From Gemmatimonadota bacterium (GTDB taxonomy: Bacteria; Gemmatimonadota; Gemmatimonadetes; Gemmatimonadales; Gemmatimonadaceae): a DNA stretch of 64,000 nt. The translations under genes and the position numbers were made by a program. The DNA lies in NCBI GenBank assembly GCA_040389905.1, contig JAZJZK010000030.1:22085-86084 (forward strand), read 5' to 3'. Below the pieces are notes generated by a model. That model was given only the letters and a program-made list of their open reading frames with translations, ran no database searches and was not told where the DNA came from. Below, piece after piece: positions 2,476 through 27,147 of the stretch; within the stretch, counting starts at the first letter, position 1; the number at the start of each line of letters is the position of its first letter.

Positions 2476-4070
2476 AGAAGAACAATGCGATGACGGCGCT
2501 CGTCTGCGTGCTCGTCTGCGTGAGCAACGGCGGGGTCGCCGCGCAGGTCCCTCGCGGCGCACCAACGCCCATCGTGATTGCGTCAAAGCCCTTTGGCGAG
2601 TCGTACCTGCTCTGCGAAATGTTCGCACAACTGCTCGAAGCTCGAGGCATCGAGGTCGAGCGCCGGCCGGGACTGGGCGCAACGGAAATCGCCGTCAGCG
2701 CACTGCGCACCGGAGCGATCGACGTGTATCCCGAATACACGGGGACAGGGCTCGTGGCGGTGCTGCACGATACGCTCACCGATTCGCTCGCCGCAGATCC
2801 CCGACGAGTATTTGCGCGGGTGTCCACCGAGTTTCCACGACGGTTCGGACTCCATTGGGCTCCGCCACTCGGTTTTCAGAACACGTATGCGATCGCTGTC
2901 ACGCGTCCCACAGCTGACCGTTACCATTTGCGGACGCTGAGCGACCTCGCGCGCGCCGCCCCACAGTTGACGGCGGGATTCACGGCGGACTTTATCGGTC
3001 GGCCGGATGGGCTCGTGGGGCTGCGTCGAGTGTACGGCCTCGCGCTCAAAGCGGTGCGGCCGCTGGCGCCGGCGGTGAAGTACCAGGCATTGGCGACTGG
3101 GGCAGTCGACGTCGTCGATGGCTACTCGACAGACGGATTGCTCGCCAAGTACGACCTCGTAGTCCTTGCGGACGACCGGCACTTTTTCCCTCCGTACGAG
3201 GCGGCTGCTCTTGTGTCCCGGCGCGTGGGCGCTGCGCGACCCGACGTCATGGGAACGCTCGCGGAATTGAGTGGGCGACTCGACGAGGACACGATGCGAC
3301 GGCTCAATCGGCGCGTCGAGGTAGATGGCGTCGCCGTCGCTGTGGTGGCCGCCGGCGCGCTGCGGGATCTCCGGCTCATCGGCGGCGTCACCGCGCCATC
3401 GCTCGCATCGGAGAATCCGTCTGATTCCTTTCCTGGATACCTGATCGCGCAACGTTCGCAGATTCTGTCGCTCGCGCTCCGGCACTTAGTGCTTGTCCTG
3501 GTCGCGCTCTTTGCGGCCATCGCGATCGGAGTACCAATCGGTCTCGCGCTCGAGCGGTCGCGCGCGCTGGCAGAACCGGTGATCCGCGTGCTGGGCATGA
3601 TTCAGACGATTCCGAGCATCGCCCTTCTCGCGTTCATGATTCCATTTCTCGGCGTCGGCGTCGTTCCGGCGATCGTCGCCCTGTGGCTGTACGCGCTGCT
3701 GCCGATTGTCCGGGGCACGTTCAACGGGGTTCGCGACGCCGACCCGGACGCCGTCGAGGCAGCTGAGGCATTGGGCATGACCGCTCTGCAGCGCCTGATG
3801 CAGGTTCGGCTGCCGCTCGCGGCGCCCGTGATCATGGCGGGGATCCGCACGGCGGCGGTGATCACAGTCGGGACGGCGACGCTTGCGGCGTTCATCGGGG
3901 CGGGGGGGCTGGGAGAGCCGATCGTCGCGGGGCTGTCACTTGCGGATTCGAGGATGGTGCTATCGGGGGCGCTTCCGGCGGCGCTACTCGCACTCCTCGT
4001 CGACGGGGGGCTCGCGGTGGCAGAAAGAGTGGTGGCGCCGGCGCACCTCCGTTCGTCCGCTCGGCTTTGA
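2472..4070 (+). CDS. Osmoprotectant ABC transporter, fused substrate-binding (OpuAC-type) and permease protein
   Basis: IDVYPEYTGT, FFPPYEA, QTIPSIALLAF, EAA loop EAAEALGM, LAAFIGAGGLG. Confidence 0.9.
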   Translation: MKKNNAMTALVCVLVCVSNGGVAAQVPRGAPTPIVIASKPFGESYLLCEMFAQLLEARGIEVERRPGLGATEIAVSALRTGAIDVYPEYTGTGLVAVLHDTLTDSLAADPRRVFARVSTEFPRRFGLHWAPPLGFQNTYAIAVTRPTADRYHLRTLSDLARAAPQLTAGFTADFIGRPDGLVGLRRVYGLALKAVRPLAPAVKYQALATGAVDVVDGYSTDGLLAKYDLVVLADDRHFFPPYEAAALVSRRVGAARPDVMGTLAELSGRLDEDTMRRLNRRVEVDGVAVAVVAAGALRDLRLIGGVTAPSLASENPSDSFPGYLIAQRSQILSLALRHLVLVLVALFAAIAIGVPIGLALERSRALAEPVIRVLGMIQTIPSIALLAFMIPFLGVGVVPAIVALWLYALLPIVRGTFNGVRDADPDAVEAAEALGMTALQRLMQVRLPLAAPVIMAGIRTAAVITVGTATLAAFIGAGGLGEPIVAGLSLADSRMVLSGALPAALLALLVDGGLAVAERVVAPAHLRSSARL

Positions 4071-19181: not shown

Positions 19182-19331
19182 GTGTACCTGGCTCCAGTTG
19201 GGGGACGACTCAGCAGATTCGCCGGCGTTCATCTTCATACGCGCTATCGCGCTGAATGTTACCGAGTTGCAAGCTGGCATGAGGCCACTCGTCGAGTAGG
19301 TTGCACTGCCTCCACCCTCCCACAATACGAC

Positions 19332-19874
19332 ATGACAGACGCGACCGCCGCGCAACCGTTCCCCAGTGACGAAGTACTGATCGAACGACTTCATGACGAC
19401 GTCGTCATTCCGCGCCGCGCGACAGCGGGGTCGGCAGGGCAGGATCTCCACGCCTATTTGCGAGGCCGATCGGTTCGCACGTCAGATGGCACGCAACAGT
19501 CCGACGTGCCGGCGTCCGAGCTGGATGGGAGTTGGGGAGTGACCCTCCAGCCGCGAGAGATGGCCCTCATCCCCCTTGGATTTCGCACGCGTATGCCACA
19601 CGGAATCGAAGCGCAAATCCGGCCGCGCAGTGGTCAAGCATTCAAGAACGCGCTGACCGTTCCGAACGCGCCCGGGACCATCGACGCCGACTATGCGGAG
19701 GAGTGGATGGTGATTGTACGAAACGATGCTCCGGTTGCGCGGCGGATCATCCACGGGGAACGGATCGCGCAGGTGGTCTTCGCGCGTTATGCGATGCCGG
19801 CGTTCGTTGACGGCTCCGTTTCCCGCACGACCGAAAGGGAAGGGGGTTTTGGAAGCACAGGGACGGGACGCTGA
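19332..19874 (+). CDS. dut: dUTP diphosphatase
   Basis: GSAGQDL, QIRPRSG, PGTIDADY, GERIAQ, REGGFGSTG. Confidence 0.95.
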   Translation: MTDATAAQPFPSDEVLIERLHDDVVIPRRATAGSAGQDLHAYLRGRSVRTSDGTQQSDVPASELDGSWGVTLQPREMALIPLGFRTRMPHGIEAQIRPRSGQAFKNALTVPNAPGTIDADYAEEWMVIVRNDAPVARRIIHGERIAQVVFARYAMPAFVDGSVSRTTEREGGFGSTGTGR

Positions 19875-19913
19875 AACAAAGAGCGGCAGAGCCCGCGAAG
19901 GCTCTGCCGCTCT
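19875..19913 (-). terminator. Intrinsic terminator with its T-tract on the minus strand (possibly bidirectional)
   Basis: 14-bp stem AGAGCGGCAGAGCC/GGCTCTGCCGCTCT followed by TTGTTT on the minus strand. Confidence 0.8.
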
Positions 19914-20004
19914 CTATCGTCAACGTGGTCCCAGCCCTGTTACCTGGTGCTCACGAAAACGAAACCGGACCGCAAGACCGCCGATCCGCGTAAACCGTTG
20001 AAAG

Positions 20005-20049
20005 TTAACGGGTTACGGTGATCTTGCTGGTCCGAGGCTGACTAGACAA
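20005..20049 (-). other. Displaced copy of a 14-codon small ORF (MSSQPRTSKITVTR), now without RBS
   Basis: TTG...TAA, same length and register as 26217-26261. Confidence 0.55.
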
Positions 20050-20054
20050 TTGAT
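20039..20054. repeat. att core, left
   Basis: TGACTAGACAATTGAT, identical to 26251-26266. Confidence 0.88.
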
Positions 20055-20245
20055 GAAGTTCAAACTCATTCCATAATCATTACAAGAGGGAATAAGAGGG
20101 TTTAATATGATATGATTTTGGTTCTAAACCATTGTCAAACAATAACTTATTGCAATTCGAAGTAAACATTTTGTTGGGATACGGCAAGCTCTAGGAACAT
20201 TCTGAGGGATTCATGTACAGCAGATCGTACACGACAAAGTGTAAC

Positions 20246-20280
20246 TTGACAAATGTACATAAATGCTATATATTTAGCAC
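20246..20280 (+). promoter_or_regulatory. Sigma70-type promoter for the integrase (leaderless) with overlapping palindrome
   Basis: TTGACA-17 nt-TATATT-6 nt-ATG; TGCTA-N6-TAGCA brackets the -10. Confidence 0.7.
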
Positions 20281-21477
20281 ATGCCAAGAAAGAAGACACG
20301 TCACCACCGACCGAAGAACGGGGCAACGTTTTATGTAAACCGTCGATTTCCGCAATACGGCGTTCCACGGCTGTGCCGGTCAAGCGGCACAAACGACGAA
20401 AAGGTGTTTGACGACATCCAACGCCTGCTCGACCAACTCGGACAATTGGGAAGTCCGGAGGCAGCAAAGATCATCCAAGGGATTCACAAGAAGCGACTTA
20501 CCTTCGTCGATGCCCTTGGCGCGCACCAAGGTGAAGGCCGTCAGGGCATTATCAGGCTCGCTGAAGATGATGCTCCCATTGACGAGCGGTCCTTCCAAGC
20601 TTGGCTGGCAGTGCACGACGTAACCCAAAGCACTCGAACTTCATACAGGAACGCCTTCAAAGCGCTGGAAAAATTCGTGAAATCCGGCGACACGATGAAA
20701 TCGCTTCCCGCCGTGCTCGGGCGGTATCGGGATGACTGTGTGAAGCTCGGGAGGAACCGTAGGGCCTTCGACATCGCGCTCGCTGTCGCGCAGGCATGGG
20801 TCAAAAAAACAATCGGCCCGGCCTCAATGCCCTACCGCGACGTGCGGCTCGTCCAGCGGTTCAACGACAAGCCCGATGCCCGAAAGAGCAAGTACTTCAG
20901 CCCCCGTGACATCATGAATATTGCGCAGAGGCTCCCGGCACCGCTGGATGACGTCCTCTTCGCGACCGCATCTTATGGAACCAATCCGAAAGAGTATTTC
21001 AGCGACGGGTTCACGGTGACACCGGATGGCGTTGAAATTCATGGAGAGAAATCCAAGCACCGGAAGCGCATAGTTCCGCTCCTTCGAAATTTTCCGCCCG
21101 TAATACCGCCAGCATGGATCAATTATCGAAGATGGTGGCGGTATGTGACAATGGCATCAAATGGAGAGATGCTTCCTGACGATGCAAGGAAGTCATTTGC
21201 GCGCTGGATGTCAGAGGCGGGTATCCCCTTCAACCGCGCCGAACAATATCAAGGTCACGCTGAAACCACGCAGACGGCGACGTATTTCTATCACGTTGCG
21301 ACGGCGGGACAATTGAGAACAGATGGGCTGCTCCTCAACGATTGGATCAAAAAGAACCTTGAGCAGGAGCCCCCGAATCCAGCTGGGCGAGTCATAGCAA
21401 TTCGCCCGCGCGACGCAAAATACGAAAAGGGGATGCTGGTCCGGCCGCCGAAGCGAGCGTTGTGGCGGGAGGAATAG
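20281..21477 (+). CDS. Divergent tyrosine recombinase/integrase
   Basis: EKSKHRKRIVPL, DDARKSFARW, QGH, TATY; first catalytic Arg position reads YGTNPKE. Confidence 0.8.
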   Translation: MPRKKTRHHRPKNGATFYVNRRFPQYGVPRLCRSSGTNDEKVFDDIQRLLDQLGQLGSPEAAKIIQGIHKKRLTFVDALGAHQGEGRQGIIRLAEDDAPIDERSFQAWLAVHDVTQSTRTSYRNAFKALEKFVKSGDTMKSLPAVLGRYRDDCVKLGRNRRAFDIALAVAQAWVKKTIGPASMPYRDVRLVQRFNDKPDARKSKYFSPRDIMNIAQRLPAPLDDVLFATASYGTNPKEYFSDGFTVTPDGVEIHGEKSKHRKRIVPLLRNFPPVIPPAWINYRRWWRYVTMASNGEMLPDDARKSFARWMSEAGIPFNRAEQYQGHAETTQTATYFYHVATAGQLRTDGLLLNDWIKKNLEQEPPNPAGRVIAIRPRDAKYEKGMLVRPPKRALWREE

Positions 21478-21537
21478 GTGAAAGCCGAGCAACCCCTTTC
21501 ATCATTAATTCCACCTGAACTGTAGAGGCGACCACAA

Positions 21538-22014
21538 GTGCCGGAATTAAGTGTTTATCGCGGCGCAGTGTACTGGATGATTTCTGATTATGGATATCAA
21601 ACCTTGAACGAACCGGGCGACGCGGATAATGATATTCGCTTTCAATGCACCGCTAAGTCAGGGCGCTCCTATCGATCCCAATTTCTGCTATATCCAATCC
21701 AGCGCATTGCTAGAGTTGTCATTCATTTTGACCTGAGATATCACCCGAACCGAAGACTGTTCTTTGCGGAGGTAGTGCACCGTCTCAATGATTCCGTCGC
21801 TGTGCTCGGACATTTTGAATTTCACTGGGATTCCGGTCAGACGAGTTTCGTCTTTGGTGCCGAGGTGACGGACCCTGATCCCGAAACATTTGCGACGATG
21901 ATGAATCGCTGTGCTTACGCCATTGAGGTATGGGAGGCGGCGTCAGGATTCTTTAGCGGCAGACTCGGTGCGGACGGTGTCGTGTCCGTCGCTCAGATGT
22001 TGACAGAAGTCTAA
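21538..22014 (+). CDS. Hypothetical protein, YbjN/T3SS-chaperone-like fold
   Basis: 158-aa ORF; AEVVHRLNDSVAVLGHFEFHWDSG resembles YbjN-type domains. Confidence 0.5.
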   Translation: MPELSVYRGAVYWMISDYGYQTLNEPGDADNDIRFQCTAKSGRSYRSQFLLYPIQRIARVVIHFDLRYHPNRRLFFAEVVHRLNDSVAVLGHFEFHWDSGQTSFVFGAEVTDPDPETFATMMNRCAYAIEVWEAASGFFSGRLGADGVVSVAQMLTEV

Positions 22015-22105
22015 TGGGAATATCATATCATTTTGTTGCCGGAATCCCGAAAGCAGAAGGGATATTTTGGCGGTCGTATGCTTGGTCGGAATGCTGAATG
22101 ATCCT

Positions 22106-22345
22106 TCAGAGTTCCGGCAGGAAATACGCTATCGGTTTTCGGTACGCCACGGCCAAATCGCAAAGTTCCACAGGGTCAATTCGAATTTCTCCCTGTTCGA
22201 TCTTCGAAATGCGGCCTTGTGTAGTTCCGAGCCGTCCCGCGACCTGTACCTGAGTCAACCCAGCAGCCAAGCGGGCTTCACGGAGTTTGCGGAGCATCTC
22301 CCGGTATCGCGGATCGTGAATTGACCGGGGTTTTCGAGCGGGCAC
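22106..22345 (-). CDS. XRE-family HTH transcriptional regulator
   Basis: LREARLAAGLTQVQVAGRLGTTQGRISKIEQG. Confidence 0.92.
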   Translation of the reverse strand: MPARKPRSIHDPRYREMLRKLREARLAAGLTQVQVAGRLGTTQGRISKIEQGEIRIDPVELCDLAVAYRKPIAYFLPEL

Positions 22346-22459
22346 GGGCGGGTCGGTGAAGGACCCGCTGAAGATTTATTCCGTTTGCGAATACTCCGAA
22401 TAAGAATAATATTGCGGGCCGCTCGTGGTTCACTCCGCACCCCTCCAACACTCCACACA

Positions 22460-22732
22460 ATGCCACGCACCATCATCGCACTCGCCTTCACGATGGCAGC
22501 CTGTGCGAATTCATCTCGCCGAGAAGTTCAAGTTGACCAAATCACGGCGGCCTGCGAAACGAGGGAGCAGCTCAAGGCGTATCAAGGGTTCCACCGCATC
22601 AATGATGGCTGCGACTTCCTTGGGCTGAGTAGCGGCACAGTCACCGGGAAGCTTGCGGACCAAGGCGACACCTGGGCGAAGGTTGAGATAGGTGGTCGGA
22701 CTGTCTACGTAAGCCGAAGCGCAATTCACTAA
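22460..22732 (+). CDS. Small lipoprotein, possible SH3-like C-terminus
   Basis: [15 protein letters not shown] lipobox; [13 protein letters not shown]. Confidence 0.65.
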
Positions 22733-23466
22733 CCCACAACCGGCAAGTTCTCATGAAGAAATGCCCATGGTGTGCGGAGGAAATACAAGATGCAGCAATC
22801 CTGTGTCGATATTGTGGGCAAAGTACACTTCCGCAGAATATGCCGCCGAGTCCCGCGACCACGGCAAGTACAACAACGGCTTCCGATCACCAACCTGCCC
22901 CGGAGTACCCAGCAGATCCAGATAGCGTGAAACGCCGGCTGGGAGAGTTCGGTGGATCAATCGCAGGGGAATGCCGTGCATGCACGTACAAGGGTCAGAT
23001 CGGAGTGGACACTACGAACATCGGACCCTTCGCCGGATTGGGCCTTCCTGTGTTTTTCTTTGCGTGGACGTCTCTTGGACTTTTCATGTCGCTATTCCTT
23101 GGAGCGTTGACATCCATCGTCATGATTCTGGTCAAAGGCACCAAGGTTGTAACGTGCCCTCAGTGTGATCGCGCCAGCACTGTCGCAGTACATGTTTCGC
23201 ACTATGCTATTCCAATAGACGCGTTAGCCCGTACGCCAAGTGCCAGATCATAGCTGGTCAGGGGCATTGTTGAACCAACCGATTGCCGGGAACCTTGCGG
23301 ACCAAGGCGACACTTGGGCGAAGGTTGAAATAGGTGGACGGACCGTGTACGTAAGCCGAAGCGCAATTCACTAACCCACGACCGGCAAGTTCTCATGAAG
23401 AAATGCCCGTGGTGTGCGGAGGAAATACAAGATGCAGCAATCCTGTGTCGATATTGTGGGCAAAGT
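22644..23466 (+). repeat. 181-bp imperfect direct repeat (22644-22824 and 23286-23466)
   Basis: Covers the lipoprotein 3' end, the spacer and the first 24 codons of both zinc-ribbon genes. Confidence 0.95.
22753..23253 (+). CDS. Zinc-ribbon (UPF0547-like) membrane protein, cassette 1
   Basis: [26 protein letters not shown] - TM hairpin - CPQC. Confidence 0.8.
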
Positions 23467-23811
23467 TCCCGACCGCAAGACATGCCATCCACGCATCCCT
23501 CGGTAGCGGCAGGGATGGCCACGGGCATACGCGATGCCACAGGCAAACTGAATTGGAACAAAGTAGCAGAGCAAATGACACGGTGTATCCATTGCCAGTC
23601 AATGGACACTGGGGTCAAGTACACCCTCTGGCATTGGCTCGTCGGAATCGGCTGGTTCCCGATCGGAACCGTATTCGCCATGTTGTTTCCAGCACGGCGC
23701 TGCAATGAATGCGGGAAGTGTTTCGGTCCAGCATACGAAGGAATGAAGACAGTGGTCACCCTTTCGCTGATTTGCCTATCCTTGCTCGCCATCTTCATAT
23801 TCGTCATTTGA
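23395..23811 (+). CDS. Zinc-ribbon (UPF0547-like) membrane protein, cassette 2
   Basis: Same N-terminus; CIHC - hydrophobic segment - CNEC; C-terminal TM. Confidence 0.8.
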
Positions 23812-24002
23812 TGATATGAAGCGAGGCCCCAAGGCAGACGGTCTTTTTCTTAGTGGCCAAAGACGCTGGAGAAAGCCTCATGGTGCGCGCCGGATAAAAC
23901 AATATCGGAGCCATATTGTTATGCTGGACGCCTTCCGCCAACCACCGACAAATCCCGGCATCGCTCCTATTTATGGATTGACCCATAAATTGGAGAATTA
24001 TC

Positions 24003-24221
24003 ATGCAGGATCAATTACTTACGACAGCAGAAGTGTGCGAAATATTCCGTTGCAGCGAGCGTAGTGTTAACAGGATGGTGGCGGATGGAATTCTGAACCC
24101 TCTGCGTTTGCGGGGGCTGGTTCGTTTTCGGCAGTCGGAACTCGATGAATTGATTGAGGCGCTTGACTTGAACCCGGATGAATGTCAGTGCGATGGCCAG
24201 TGTGAATGCGTGAAAGAGTAG
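24003..24221 (+). CDS. Excisionase-like HTH (HTH_17/MerR-like) protein
   Basis: LLTTAEVCEIFRCSERSVNRMVADGIL...VRFRQSELD; GGAG RBS. Confidence 0.85.
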   Translation: MQDQLLTTAEVCEIFRCSERSVNRMVADGILNPLRLRGLVRFRQSELDELIEALDLNPDECQCDGQCECVKE

Positions 24222-24302
24222 TGCAGGTCACAGGCCCTTGATCCAACTAAAAACGTTCAACCGCTGTCTGCCACGTCGGTCTCTCATGCAGGTACAAAAG
24301 TG

Positions 24303-24343
24303 AAAAGCTCCCCATCCGGCTTTGCTGCCGGGGGGAGCCTTTT
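24303..24343. terminator. Bidirectional intrinsic terminator between xis and the polymerase gene
   Basis: AAAA-GCTCCCC..CCGGC loop GCCGG GGGGAGC-CTTTT. Confidence 0.75.
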
Positions 24344-24419
24344 GTATCACAAATAGCTTACCTGAACACTATAAAGGGTAACGGAAGAAGTTATGATATT
24401 GTTGGGCGCCCTTTCCACT

Positions 24420-25844
24420 TCATAGCTGTTCCCCCTTCAACCTCAATCCAATATCAAAGGCAAATGCCTGAATGGATGATTTACTGAGTGAGTGTTCAAG
24501 AAACGCTATATCAAACGGTTCTTTCGAGATCCATCCGTCATGCATTGGTACAAGAATATCTGAACGGTTGGCACAGCATATGTTCAACGCCCAAGCTTCG
24601 TATCCCAGCATGATGAAGGACAAGAGTCTCTTGCGGGGGTAATTCTTGCCGTCTGATTTCCGCAGGGGGTGAATCTTTCCGGCAGCGTTCCTGACATGGG
24701 TGAATCTCCTTCCCGTTCGAACCCTGTGGGCATTTATGAGTGTTTTCCTTGCTGACCGAATTTCGAGTTGAATCATGTGATAATACGGGTCGGCTAGGAT
24801 GCGCTCGGCTCCCAATTGTCCGGCAATGTCTACAAGCGTGGAGTATTTTCGATGTGAGGAACGACGGACTCCAAAGAAGGCTGCCAAGATTACTATTTTC
24901 ACCTTGTCCTTCGAAATCATCCATCTCCCGGAAAGCTCCTGCTGTCTTTCGGACAAGTGTGTGAGATAGTCACGAATGACGCACACGGGCCTGCCATAGT
25001 GTTTCCCAAGGCTGAAGAACAGTGATGGATGACATGCGTTGAAGTCATAGTTCCACCAGCCAGTATCTTTATACAGTTTCGCTCGTGCGCCCCGCTCCAT
25101 GCGTTGAAGGGAACATTCCCCGAGTCCCATGAGCCGCCCGGGGCCAGTGTGCGGCTCGCTCTCGGGTTTGAAGTCATGGTATAGGTTCGGGACGCCCCCC
25201 GCGACGCGAATCCATTGGCGGACCTTGTACAGCGAACGCAGCCCTTCCACGGACTGGTTCGACGCTCGCGATGCCTTCGCTGCGATTTCTGCCTCAAAAT
25301 CAGCAATCAGCGTGTCCACCCGCTGCGTGTCAAACGGAATCACGGATGGAACACTGAATTGAAAAAATGATGTCCGGAGAATGCCATCAGCGGGGAAGTG
25401 CTGTGCGCCCGATTCCCACGCAATGCTAGCGGTCTTGTCCCGCCAACAATCTGTAAGGAGTATCTCGACAGGGCGGCACAGAAAATATGCTTTTGTATAT
25501 CGCCCCTCCTCGTACCCGTCGTCCCCATCCGGGAAATGCCACAGATTCCGGAGATACTTCTTGTAGTCTGACTCGCTGCCCCCAAGATGTTTCCTCAACC
25601 TGCGTTCGATGAAGCTCGACCCACGGGCGATTTGCGGTCCAATATGGTGTGCTGCCAAAGCGGATGGGATTGGGTGCGTGTGCGGGCGGGAGAGGAAGTA
25701 CGACATGTTCAGATACTTCACGAGATGTCGCACTTTCCGATCTATTTCCCGCTGTCGCTTCATCTGGGCGCGTACGTGGGCCTCCACGAAAGCGTCAAGC
25801 TCGGGGAGTCGCAGTCGTGGTGCTGCTTCGAGAACAGTGGACAT
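24420..25844 (-). CDS. Stand-alone family-A-like polymerase (TV-Pol-like), no recognisable exonuclease domain
   Basis: GRLMG...SLQRM, motif A YDFNACHP, motif B KDKVKIVILAAFFG, motif C PMHDGW, in PolA order. Confidence 0.7.
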   Translation of the reverse strand: MSTVLEAAPRLRLPELDAFVEAHVRAQMKRQREIDRKVRHLVKYLNMSYFLSRPHTHPIPSALAAHHIGPQIARGSSFIERRLRKHLGGSESDYKKYLRNLWHFPDGDDGYEEGRYTKAYFLCRPVEILLTDCWRDKTASIAWESGAQHFPADGILRTSFFQFSVPSVIPFDTQRVDTLIADFEAEIAAKASRASNQSVEGLRSLYKVRQWIRVAGGVPNLYHDFKPESEPHTGPGRLMGLGECSLQRMERGARAKLYKDTGWWNYDFNACHPSLFFSLGKHYGRPVCVIRDYLTHLSERQQELSGRWMISKDKVKIVILAAFFGVRRSSHRKYSTLVDIAGQLGAERILADPYYHMIQLEIRSARKTLINAHRVRTGRRFTHVRNAAGKIHPLRKSDGKNYPRKRLLSFIMLGYEAWALNICCANRSDILVPMHDGWISKEPFDIAFLEHSLSKSSIQAFAFDIGLRLKGEQL

Positions 25845-25874
25845 AAAAAAACCTCATACGGTTAGGGTATGAGG
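25845..25874 (-). promoter_or_regulatory. Terminator/RBS-sequestering hairpin directly abutting the polymerase ATG
   Basis: Minus strand CCTCATAC-CCTAACC-GTATGAGG-TTTTTTT-ATG. Confidence 0.7.
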
Positions 25875-26216
25875 AGCCGTCGTACTGAATGTGCTTCGCT
25901 GATAGGGGTTACTCCCGATCGTTCCAGCCGCTCGCTACGTCGCCTCCAACATGGTTACCATTGCACAAAGCATCATTCGGGCAAAATCGTCAAGGGGTCT
26001 TCAATCCCGCCAATTCAAAACATGATTTTGAGCTTGAAGGGACGGATGCACCCCGACGAGCGGGAACTATCAATACTAGAAACGACGAGAGCGACAGCAG
26101 GCCCGATGCCAACTGTCGCTCTCTGTCATTGTGACGGTTTCCGGCCCTGTGCACAGGAATCCGTACATCAATGTTTCGGACTAGCTCAAGGCCAATCCTA
26201 CGTAAGCCGTTGAAAG

Positions 26217-26261
26217 TTATAAGCTTACGGTGACCCTGAAAAGCCGAAAATGACTAGACAA
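26217..26261 (-). CDS. 14-aa small ORF (MSSHFRLFRVTVSL) reconstituted across the right att site
   Basis: Perfect SD AAGGAGGTGATC (26264-26275) with AGGAGG 7 nt before TTG; homolog at 20005-20049. Confidence 0.55.
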   Translation of the reverse strand: MSSHFRLFRVTVSL

Positions 26262-26266
26262 TTGAT
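26251..26266. repeat. att core, right
   Basis: TGACTAGACAATTGAT. Confidence 0.88.
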
Positions 26267-26394
26267 CACCTCCTTCGTTTCGGGGTTGTACTTGAGGGCG
26301 AACGGAATCTCATACTCAAATTGAAACGTAGAGTTCCTTGGCGCAAGCGTCAGCGGAGAATTTCCGAGCGCGCCCAAGAGCTCAACTGGAGCAC

Positions 26395-27147
26395 ATGCCG
26401 AACAAATCGATCTCCGCGTTGAAAGCCGACGCCAGAAGCTATTGGACGCTCAGCCGCTCTCATCGCTACAGTCTGCTGTTTGCGTTGCCGCTGCTGCTCC
26501 TCTACGAGTTCCTCGAAGCCGTTGCACCCGTGCGAGAGCGCGGCGGCGTGGTGCGGAATGGCGCGGATGTCGTGCTCACGGGCTTGTCCACCTGGCTGAT
26601 CGGCCCGCGCGGACCCCTGGTCTTCATGGGGATCGTGATCGGCGTATCGCTCTGGCTCATTTATCGAGATCGCGGCGCGGGCCGCGTTCGCGTCAGCATG
26701 TTCGGTGCGATGTTTGGCGAATCGGTCGTGCTCGCGCTTGTCTTCGGGCTGGTCGTCGGCATGGTGACCGTCCAGGTCCTTGGTCCCTTGCGCGCGTTGG
26801 CGGCTGGCGGCGCGGTGCCCGGATCCTCTATCGCGCGACTCACGCTGTCGCTCGGCGCGGGGCTGTATGAGGAGCTGCTGTTTCGCGTCGTCATCGTGGC
26901 GCTGCTGGCTAATGCGTTCCGCTTGCTCGGCGCCGGGCGCCTCTCGGCCGGCATCGTGGCCACAGTCATCGGCGCGTTGCTCTTCTCGGCGTTTCACTAT
27001 ATCGGCGCACTGGGCGATCCGTTTACGCTCGAGTCGTTTGTGTTCCGCGCTATTGCCGGGCTGGCGTTTAGCGCACTGTATCTCACGCGTGGTTTCGGCA
27101 TTACCGCGTGGACGCACGCGCTCTATGACGTGGCGGTACTGATGTAG
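26395..27147 (+). CDS. CPBP (Abi/CAAX) family intramembrane glutamic endopeptidase
   Basis: EELLFR, FSAFH, HALYD; multiple TM segments. Confidence 0.9.
   Translation: MPNKSISALKADARSYWTLSRSHRYSLLFALPLLLLYEFLEAVAPVRERGGVVRNGADVVLTGLSTWLIGPRGPLVFMGIVIGVSLWLIYRDRGAGRVRVSMFGAMFGESVVLALVFGLVVGMVTVQVLGPLRALAAGGAVPGSSIARLTLSLGAGLYEELLFRVVIVALLANAFRLLGAGRLSAGIVATVIGALLFSAFHYIGALGDPFTLESFVFRAIAGLAFSALYLTRGFGITAWTHALYDVAVLM

Follow-up and report, generated by a model that had tools for sequence, protein, structure and literature searches.

A tyrosine-integrase element inserted in a conserved small RNA gene of a Gemmatimonadota bacterium carries a diverged replacement of the gene's 3' part

What does a mobile element interrupt when it integrates into the short space between two protein genes, and what does it put back? 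We address this question for a 64,000-nucleotide (nt) stretch of Gemmatimonadota DNA (contig JAZJZK010000030.1 of assembly GCA_040389905.1; hereafter the window), in which an element encoding a tyrosine integrase lies between dut and a CPBP-type protease gene. The element interrupts a conserved, apparently stand-alone small RNA gene at a 16-base-pair (bp) core. Sequence comparison indicates that it also carries a full-length, diverged replacement for the 3' part that it displaces, homologous through the terminator. The target resembles, without reaching their formal thresholds, the rre small mRNAs, namely rreB in Bradyrhizobiaceae and rreR in Rhodobacterales (Hahn et al., PMC5711450), and the Rfam family CC2171 (RF01867). 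Taking all evidence together, we consider it probable that the host promoter and Shine-Dalgarno sequence (SD) drive the rebuilt RNA, and that its fold and open frame, rather than its peptide, are under selection.

The two junctions are joined by an ungapped direct repeat of 66 nt, 77% identical, with its copies 6,212 bp apart. Inside it lies a perfect 16-bp repeat, the attachment (att) core, found at 20039-20054 next to the integrase and at 26251-26266 on the host-promoter side. The core overlaps the start codon of a 14-codon open reading frame (ORF) and spans three of its codons plus two bases. GC content between the junctions is 0.53, against 0.64 in the flanks. On the host side, dut (dUTPase; 19182-19874, plus strand; PF00692, E 2.9e-17) is convergent with the RNA gene, and the gene of a CPBP/Rce1-like intramembrane protease (26338-27147, plus strand; PF02517, E 5.6e-10) is divergent from it.

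The empty site is found in RNA libraries, whose contigs carry neither strand, level nor transcript ends. Contigs of runs X5 and X18, metatranscriptomes from different studies, fuse 26251 to 20038 with 6,212 positions skipped and no extra letters; the 16 letters of the core match both sides of this joint, and the contigs cover the RNA gene alone. In three more runs (X7, X20 and X12), contigs switch at 26251 from right-junction sequence to the left-junction, or host, allele, so that the crossover lies within the core. Because they run into left-junction sequence, and because the left-junction peptide is common in relatives, we take the left-junction ORF as the ancestral allele. No excision joint was found among the contigs of X1, a possible source run, although contigs of this kind drop rare forms. 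A scan of the genus matched the core pattern in 43 of 55 genomes (control: 2). Four other genomes have two core-like matches: one of them (G005, 6% contaminated) contains a pair of complete genes with a dut gene next to each, and for the other three an occupied site was rejected, the second match being unrelated sequence.

The interrupted gene is read on the minus strand. It opens with a conserved promoter-like motif (TTGC, GGAAC, then GTA; 26312-26346): TTGC occurs in all 29 listed upstream regions and exact GGAAC in 25 of them. The combination of GGAAC and GTA presumably resembles alternative-sigma promoters, and a scan with the sigma-70 consensus did not detect the motif. Two overlapping promoter-like motifs, one sigma-70-like and one of the GGAAC type, are kept across the genus in this stretch. 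Next come a conserved 5' leader (26276-26310) and a 12-nt SD (26264-26275), complementary to the 16S 3' end of the same genome. The leader holds a GCCC (26295-26299) that may pair, with moderate support, with a GGGC loop in the 3' domain, a loop that the element retains. Behind the host SD now stands a recombinant 14-codon ORF with a TTG start (26217-26261). The displaced host ORF, also of 14 codons (20005-20049, minus strand), has lost its SD. The displaced host 3' part (19914-20038, minus strand) contains codons 4-14, an internal anti-SD (20017-20023), a long stem and a GGGC-loop hairpin (19934-19938), and is 79-84% identical to most close alleles. Folding of 19872-20054 gives a z-score of -7.8. 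The host terminator hairpin (19880-19913, a 14-bp perfect inverted repeat with a homologous hairpin in relatives) now lies behind this fragment and is likely shared with dut.

This gene is conserved well beyond the genome at hand. Loci fetched via CPBP from 29 relatives show the SD motif next to that gene in 27 cases; of the two exceptions, one locus ends at a contig edge and G026 has dut directly beside CPBP. Tallies for these 29 relatives, for the phylum pattern and for the genus include the unpublished genomes G012 or G103, with no claim resting on these alone; both were excluded from the allele alignment, substitution ratios, anti-SD and two-state folds, 14-allele profile and 41-allele stem comparison given below. 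Across the phylum, 120 of 301 genomes contain a match to an 18-nt SD-start pattern, nearly always a single one; the reversed control matched none. Among 70 inspected loci, 59 were the RNA and 11 were false matches inside coding sequence. The Gemmatimonadota loci have ORFs of 11-25 codons, with peptides that are lineage-specific in length and sequence; of 97 pattern matches, false ones counted in, 96 start with TTG or GTG. In GTDB, the number of stored stretches that match a 19-nt SD-start pattern is estimated at 3,800. Those listed, 120 in all, belong by title mostly to Alphaproteobacteria and Gemmatimonadota, with one planctomycete, and 118 of them have an ORF of 10-30 codons. The promoter-like motif, the terminator hairpins and RNA-library contigs that stay within the gene may point to a separate transcript. 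Its SD and start codon fall in a predicted conserved hairpin, according to both the consensus fold and the anti-SD test.

Other identities for the locus find no support. ARAGORN reported neither transfer RNA (tRNA) nor transfer-messenger RNA (tmRNA) in the 64-kb window, the tmRNA being present elsewhere in the genome; no Rfam family matched the window at gathering scores; and 6S RNA gave no match at E ≤ 1 in the 85%-complete genome itself (G000). An attenuator was rejected because no gene follows the RNA on the same strand, and a type I toxin was rejected by the usual properties of such toxins, the host peptides being polar and variable.

The replacement borne by the element (26080-26250, minus strand) comprises codons 4-14, an anti-SD (26229-26235), the long-stem partner (26185-26194), the GGGC loop (26144-26148) and a terminator (26087-26124). 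This copy of ~170 nt runs through its own terminator and is 71% identical to the displaced host part, and 62-76% identical to 14 alleles of other genomes. Frame, stop, anti-SD, both predicted folds, loop and terminator are all retained in it and line up exactly with the core. A profile of the 14 alleles, run against the 5.08-Mb genome, gave four matches at E ≤ 1, all at the two junction copies: two score 135 and 58 bits, and two weak ones on the opposite strand fall on hairpins of the host copy. With a profile of the distal part alone, the element's copy still scores 45 bits (E 1.7e-11). Its GC content is 0.52, like that of the element, versus 0.59 in the host allele. No near copy was found in 300 genomes of the family, where the sole other match is a 29-nt terminator-like piece; its terminator tail is most similar to an allele on a chromosome of the same genus (G032). 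Since the displaced ORF lacks an SD before TTG, as would an excised circle, the copy would be translatable only when integrated. As far as sequence can tell, the replacement takes in the structured 3' domain entirely, down to the terminator, and is not limited to the ORF.

A preliminary description of this DNA had placed the SD, both ORFs with their peptides, and a core covering the first three codons exactly as given above, the core proving longer by two bases. It proposed that similarity continues past the stop, which it does, as far as the terminator in the profile matches; that the host locus is functional, and the conserved SD, start, frame and stop position do mark a real gene, in line with its suggested check of the dut-CPBP region in relatives; and that the element brings a replacement 3' part in the manner of tRNA-targeting elements, as the in-register copy confirms. 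Its target was to be a micropeptide or a small RNA gene. The latter is the likelier.

Does the integration deliver a peptide or an RNA? Over codons 4-14, host and element differ at 14 nucleotides, and 8 of 11 codons are changed. By the Nei-Gojobori method, the differences fall on 2 of 8.5 synonymous sites and on 12 of 24.5 non-synonymous ones, a ratio of non-synonymous to synonymous differences (pN/pS) of ~2, and no codon difference is purely synonymous. The changes include proline to phenylalanine, serine to phenylalanine, and the near-invariant last arginine to leucine. Identical residues use identical codons, and the exchanges of lysine to arginine and of isoleucine to valine are single A-to-G changes at paired positions that preserve pairing. 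Over distinct 14-codon ORFs, pN/pS is 0.89 (9 sequences), 0.66 (23) or 0.82 (all 34, among them one row from Alphaproteobacteria by oversight). At codon 15, the stops TAA, TAG and TGA replace one another, and the conserved peptide residues coincide with anti-SD and stems. The identical and conservative residues that had first been read as peptide conservation are better accounted for in this way, and the codon-level conservation expected among relatives is weak. From these comparisons, a fixed-length open frame is kept and the peptide appears weakly constrained. Integration does swap the peptide, as had been proposed, with a different meaning: the change is likely a by-product. Because the replacement alters 8 of 11 residues yet keeps frame, stop, anti-SD and both predicted folds, the needed product would be the RNA fold rather than the peptide.

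Two folds are predicted. In the first, the SD and start can be closed off by a 7-nt anti-SD on the ORF strand, as in the consensus fold of 16 sequences. The anti-SD sits at one offset per lineage, and its reading frame differs between lineages: frame 2 where the ORF has 11 or 14 codons, frame 0 where it has 17 or 20 and in many types of 21-22 codons. A 7-bp anti-SD match with at least 6 Watson-Crick pairs is present in 86 of 203 RNAs, against 5% in shuffles. In the second fold, the ORF strand forms a long stem with a downstream strand. Cognate strands pair at -27.7 (host) and -21.3 kcal/mol (element), crossed host and element strands at -15.7 and -12.4 kcal/mol, and only 6 of 5,000 shuffled strands matched the element's stem energy. 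In 39 of 41 alleles the cognate strand pairs better than the average non-cognate one, though only in 10 is it among the top two. Alignment A2 supplied no pair counts for this stem, because MAFFT had shifted the 3' strand of the element in it by one column. Closed and open folds lie near each other in energy in all 15 alleles folded: -32.1 and -31.3 kcal/mol in the element allele, a gap of 0.8 kcal/mol, compared with 3.6 in the computed empty site and 0.2-7.0 kcal/mol in 13 other alleles.

We propose the following mechanism. The host promoter would transcribe a rebuilt RNA of ~230 nt, whose ORF strand would pair either with SD and start (closed) or with the downstream strand (SD open), at near-equal predicted energies. 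The 30S subunit would dock on the long SD and slowly translate the mini-ORF, toggling the two folds; this toggling would probably set RNA turnover, as reported for rreB. The element would retain the repaired unit because the host benefits. Sensing or buffering of translation initiation under stress is our best guess for the cellular output. In this model the recombinant gene would be functional after integration.

Several results weigh against such a reading. In the full-length element allele the long stem lies 1.8 kcal/mol above the minimum-energy fold, and its pair probability is 0.06 when folded from the SD, rising to 0.83 from codon 6. The matched changes on its two strands could have arisen in an unsampled donor chromosome. 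Values of pN/pS from 11-13 codons of related sequences are noisy. The limitation of the strict pattern to 120 phylum genomes suggests that the gene may be dispensable, and neither pattern finds it in G026, which is 97% complete. Overexpression of rreB had no growth effect (PMC5711450). The locus is not assigned to rre or CC2171, because its SD pairs over 12 nt and its score falls short of the Rfam threshold. Of 8 RNA runs, none but X1 shows the element's copy over any length; apart from X1, the runs cover only a 19-nt terminator piece of this copy, run X19 gave nothing at all, and so they give no evidence of absence. The element is also a single case, since no second occupied site was found among 54 other genomes of the genus and no close integrase relative with DNA was found.

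These points lend some weight to the view that the copy is a passive relic, a 3' fragment taken from an earlier host by imprecise excision, with its fold shaped there and no present selection for repair. The single occurrence, the failure to find the gene in some near-complete genomes and the lower stability of the long stem in the element allele would all agree with it, as would the terminator tail nearest the G032 allele and an alphaproteobacterial junction (L268) without recognisable replacement. Yet none of 14 alleles exceeds 76% identity to the copy. Its GC content is element-like, 300 family genomes offer only the 29-nt terminator-like match, all its features are nevertheless in register, and we regard a mere relic as unlikely. 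We hold it quite improbable that the 14-residue peptide is itself the product and that the element installs a more hydrophobic variant with altered activity. Frame and stop position are indeed conserved through stop-codon swaps, pN/pS is 0.66 in the ARIA group, and rre peptides are conserved within clades, with RreB weakly made (PMC5711450). In Caulobacter, as far as the supplement of PMC4117421 records, the RNA between CC_2171 and CC_2172 (CCNA_R0051) holds a new ORF identified by ribosome profiling, CCNA_03965, with footprints of 0 reads per kilobase per million (RPKM) in rich and 2,049 RPKM in minimal medium. Against a peptide product stand the replaced codons outside the core, including both gains of phenylalanine and the loss of the last arginine, the lack of purely synonymous changes, the variation of length (11-25 codons) and sequence between Gemmatimonadota lineages, and the overlap of conserved residues with anti-SD and stems.

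The preliminary description had also allowed that the conservation might reflect only a DNA site, such as one resembling that of integration host factor (IHF). In full, this reading takes the similarity to stem from recombination sites alone, such as an IHF-like site near the core, with no RNA gene at all. A 13-nt loop stretch is identical in host and element (19991-20003 and 26203-26215) and includes an IHF-like site with one mismatch; it varies among relatives, only 3 of 41 alleles matching at that level. Its identity possibly reflects a close donor, gene conversion or a role in recombination, and a secondary IHF role on the element's copy is possible. As a full explanation, however, DNA sites are very improbable and already largely refuted: the whole unit, from promoter motif, SD and ORF to stems and terminator, is conserved in genomes without the element, and the gene occurs in RNA libraries and resembles an experimentally verified RNA.

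We keep the preference for an RNA gene whose fold and frame are rebuilt by the element, and turn to the element's own genes. The integrase (20281-21477, plus strand, 398 amino acids) is divergent: PF00589 is matched at E 7.5e-5, under the curated cut-off, phrog_1 (integrase) at E 7.4e-7, and the nearest protein is 47% identical. Where the usual first catalytic arginine motif of tyrosine integrases is expected, it and its two nearest relatives read G-x-x-P-K-E-Y; the later K, R, H and Y are common to them. Among 21 distant relatives (24-35%) a tRNA lies in 12 loci, and for those within the phylum in 8 of 11. Because distant relatives sit at tRNAs, this integrase clade may have switched target. 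No copy of the att core or of the RNA was found at the loci of these 21 relatives, a set in which remote relatives are incompletely sampled.

Behind the integrase follows a cargo block (21538-23811) with an ORF for 158 amino acids of unknown kind, a helix-turn-helix (HTH) regulator (22106-22345, minus strand), an ORF for 115 amino acids and two zinc-ribbon proteins (22753-23253 and 23395-23811) with duplicated 5' ends. A 201-nt duplication, 93% identical (22644-22844 and 23286-23486), covers the upstream region and zinc-ribbon N-terminus of the last two genes, whose C-termini are unrelated, a cassette-like arrangement. Further along are an excisionase-like HTH_17 protein (24003-24221, plus strand; PF12728, E 1.2e-12; phrog_66) and a protein of 474 amino acids (24420-25844, minus strand). 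The latter has no Pfam or PHROG match and comes from phage-rich clusters without a name; as its fold weakly resembles that of family A DNA polymerases (Atlas structures, TM score 0.50-0.53), it is possibly a replication protein of the element. At the integrase end, back-to-back sigma-70-like sites (20224-20252, minus strand, and 20246-20274, plus strand) point one at the displaced host RNA fragment and the other at the integrase. From its sigma-70-like site the displaced fragment, without its SD, might still be transcribed.

Is the target used elsewhere? In viral contigs, 8 of 21 matches to the SD-start motif are rre-like or short-ORF units; the other 13 were dismissed as strong SDs of ordinary genes. 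One complete phage record (L273, in the region of G447:C1:49956) contains the SD-start motif, an 11-codon Lys/Pro-rich ORF and structured DNA; this unit precedes a probable capsid-region gene, far from the phage integrase, and is possibly a phage-borne mimic. Four alphaproteobacterial records have junction-like breaks at CC2171, one with both ends. The latter, G443, is a complete 44-kb prophage record with an integrase and has CC2171 pieces at both ends with a 10-bp core in common. Behind its host promoter (L300:425-560) stands a look-alike unit: a 13-codon ORF that opens with ATG and the same three residues, followed in the list of features by an SD hairpin and a hairpin rich in GC (13 bits, E 0.036). 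Its host ORF survives at the opposite end (L301), where host-like promoter-region sequence is found at the junction. The right end of G444 is the same as that of G443, and in G442 and G446 the CC2171 5' part breaks off beside an integrase, with no second junction found. As sequence features, these breaks are suggestive of integration sites, not mapped ones. G445, with CC2171 and an integrase at opposite ends, was not counted because it has no shared junction repeat. Within Gemmatimonadota, no further case turned up. No isolated phage with a CC2171-type attP was found, and plasmid matches are whole or partial chromosome-like copies. In the literature we found no integration into rre or CC2171; published island-site tables (TIGER work) lie outside our coverage and may list such sites.

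These records invite a wider idea, which we rate as rather doubtful: RNAs of the rre/CC2171 type might be cross-phylum, ribosome-operated two-state switches, of such value that unrelated integrases have repeatedly adopted and rebuilt them, with the element allele here no neutral repair but retuned toward the SD-closed state. If so, integration would reprogram a ribosome-sensing RNA of the host. Apart from this, rre and CC2171 RNAs are widespread and ribosome-binding, and the element amounts to a natural allele-swap experiment on RNA versus peptide, one that points to the RNA. Host and element alleles form a ready pair for comparing. We also note that 'intergenic' att sites can conceal genes, and that replacement segments can diverge beyond the reach of identity-block methods.

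How does the locus compare with known systems? RNA of the rreB type is 165 nt long, with a 17-nt SD, a GTG start and 14 codons; rre RNA co-sediments with 30S, is weakly translated and is stabilised by removal of the start codon, its function being unknown (PMC5711450). Our gene shares with rre what looks like a stand-alone small RNA, an extended SD up to a non-ATG start, a serine second codon and a 14-codon ORF, along with SD and start in a predicted hairpin, a terminator and the absence of peptide similarity between lineages. It differs in its TTG start and in SD pairing of 12 nt versus 16-17, below the rre criterion of at least 16 nt, and the locus is of a Gemmatimonadota type, whereas PMC5711450 reports Alphaproteobacteria only, with no mention of a pair of alternative folds or of an element integrated in the gene. 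With CC2171 it has a 19-nt SD-start motif in common. When the CC2171 model was run on 5 Gemmatimonadota genomes, its best match was this locus in 4 of them. It scored 19.1 bits in G000 and 22-26 bits at the equivalent loci of the three others, all short of the gathering score of 75, which 7 of 20 tested motif loci do reach. The 3' body differs in sequence and helix layout, and homology is seen in the 5' motif only. CC2171 itself was confirmed by Northern blot in Methylorubrum, according to the available part of a preprint. The portions available of PMC6237742 and PMC5988900 report that CCNA_R0051 rises 4.4-fold, though not specifically, upon mitomycin C treatment and that it is G1-biased.

Among mobile elements, the closest parallel is with those that restore their targets. 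Replacement by the element is the rule at att sites inside genes, whether tRNA genes or protein genes such as icd (PMC10111431, in the part available), and phage phiEf11 restores ffs in part (PMC12540744, likewise). Like elements at tRNA, tmRNA or icd genes, as far as these sources describe them, ours combines a tyrosine integrase, a short in-gene core and a replacement beside the core; it has the integrase at one junction, an excisionase-like gene inside, a direct-repeat core, an empty site and an in-register copy. Unlike them, it targets an unannotated mini-ORF RNA, its replacement covers ORF, structured domain and terminator, and similarity is held at the level of pairing without a long identity block, as the copy is only 71% identical to the displaced part. 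Altogether, the repair logic at gene-internal att sites is known, and the RNA class is published for Alphaproteobacteria; what is new is the kind of gene targeted, how far the replacement has diverged, and that this replacement serves as evidence favouring the fold over the peptide.

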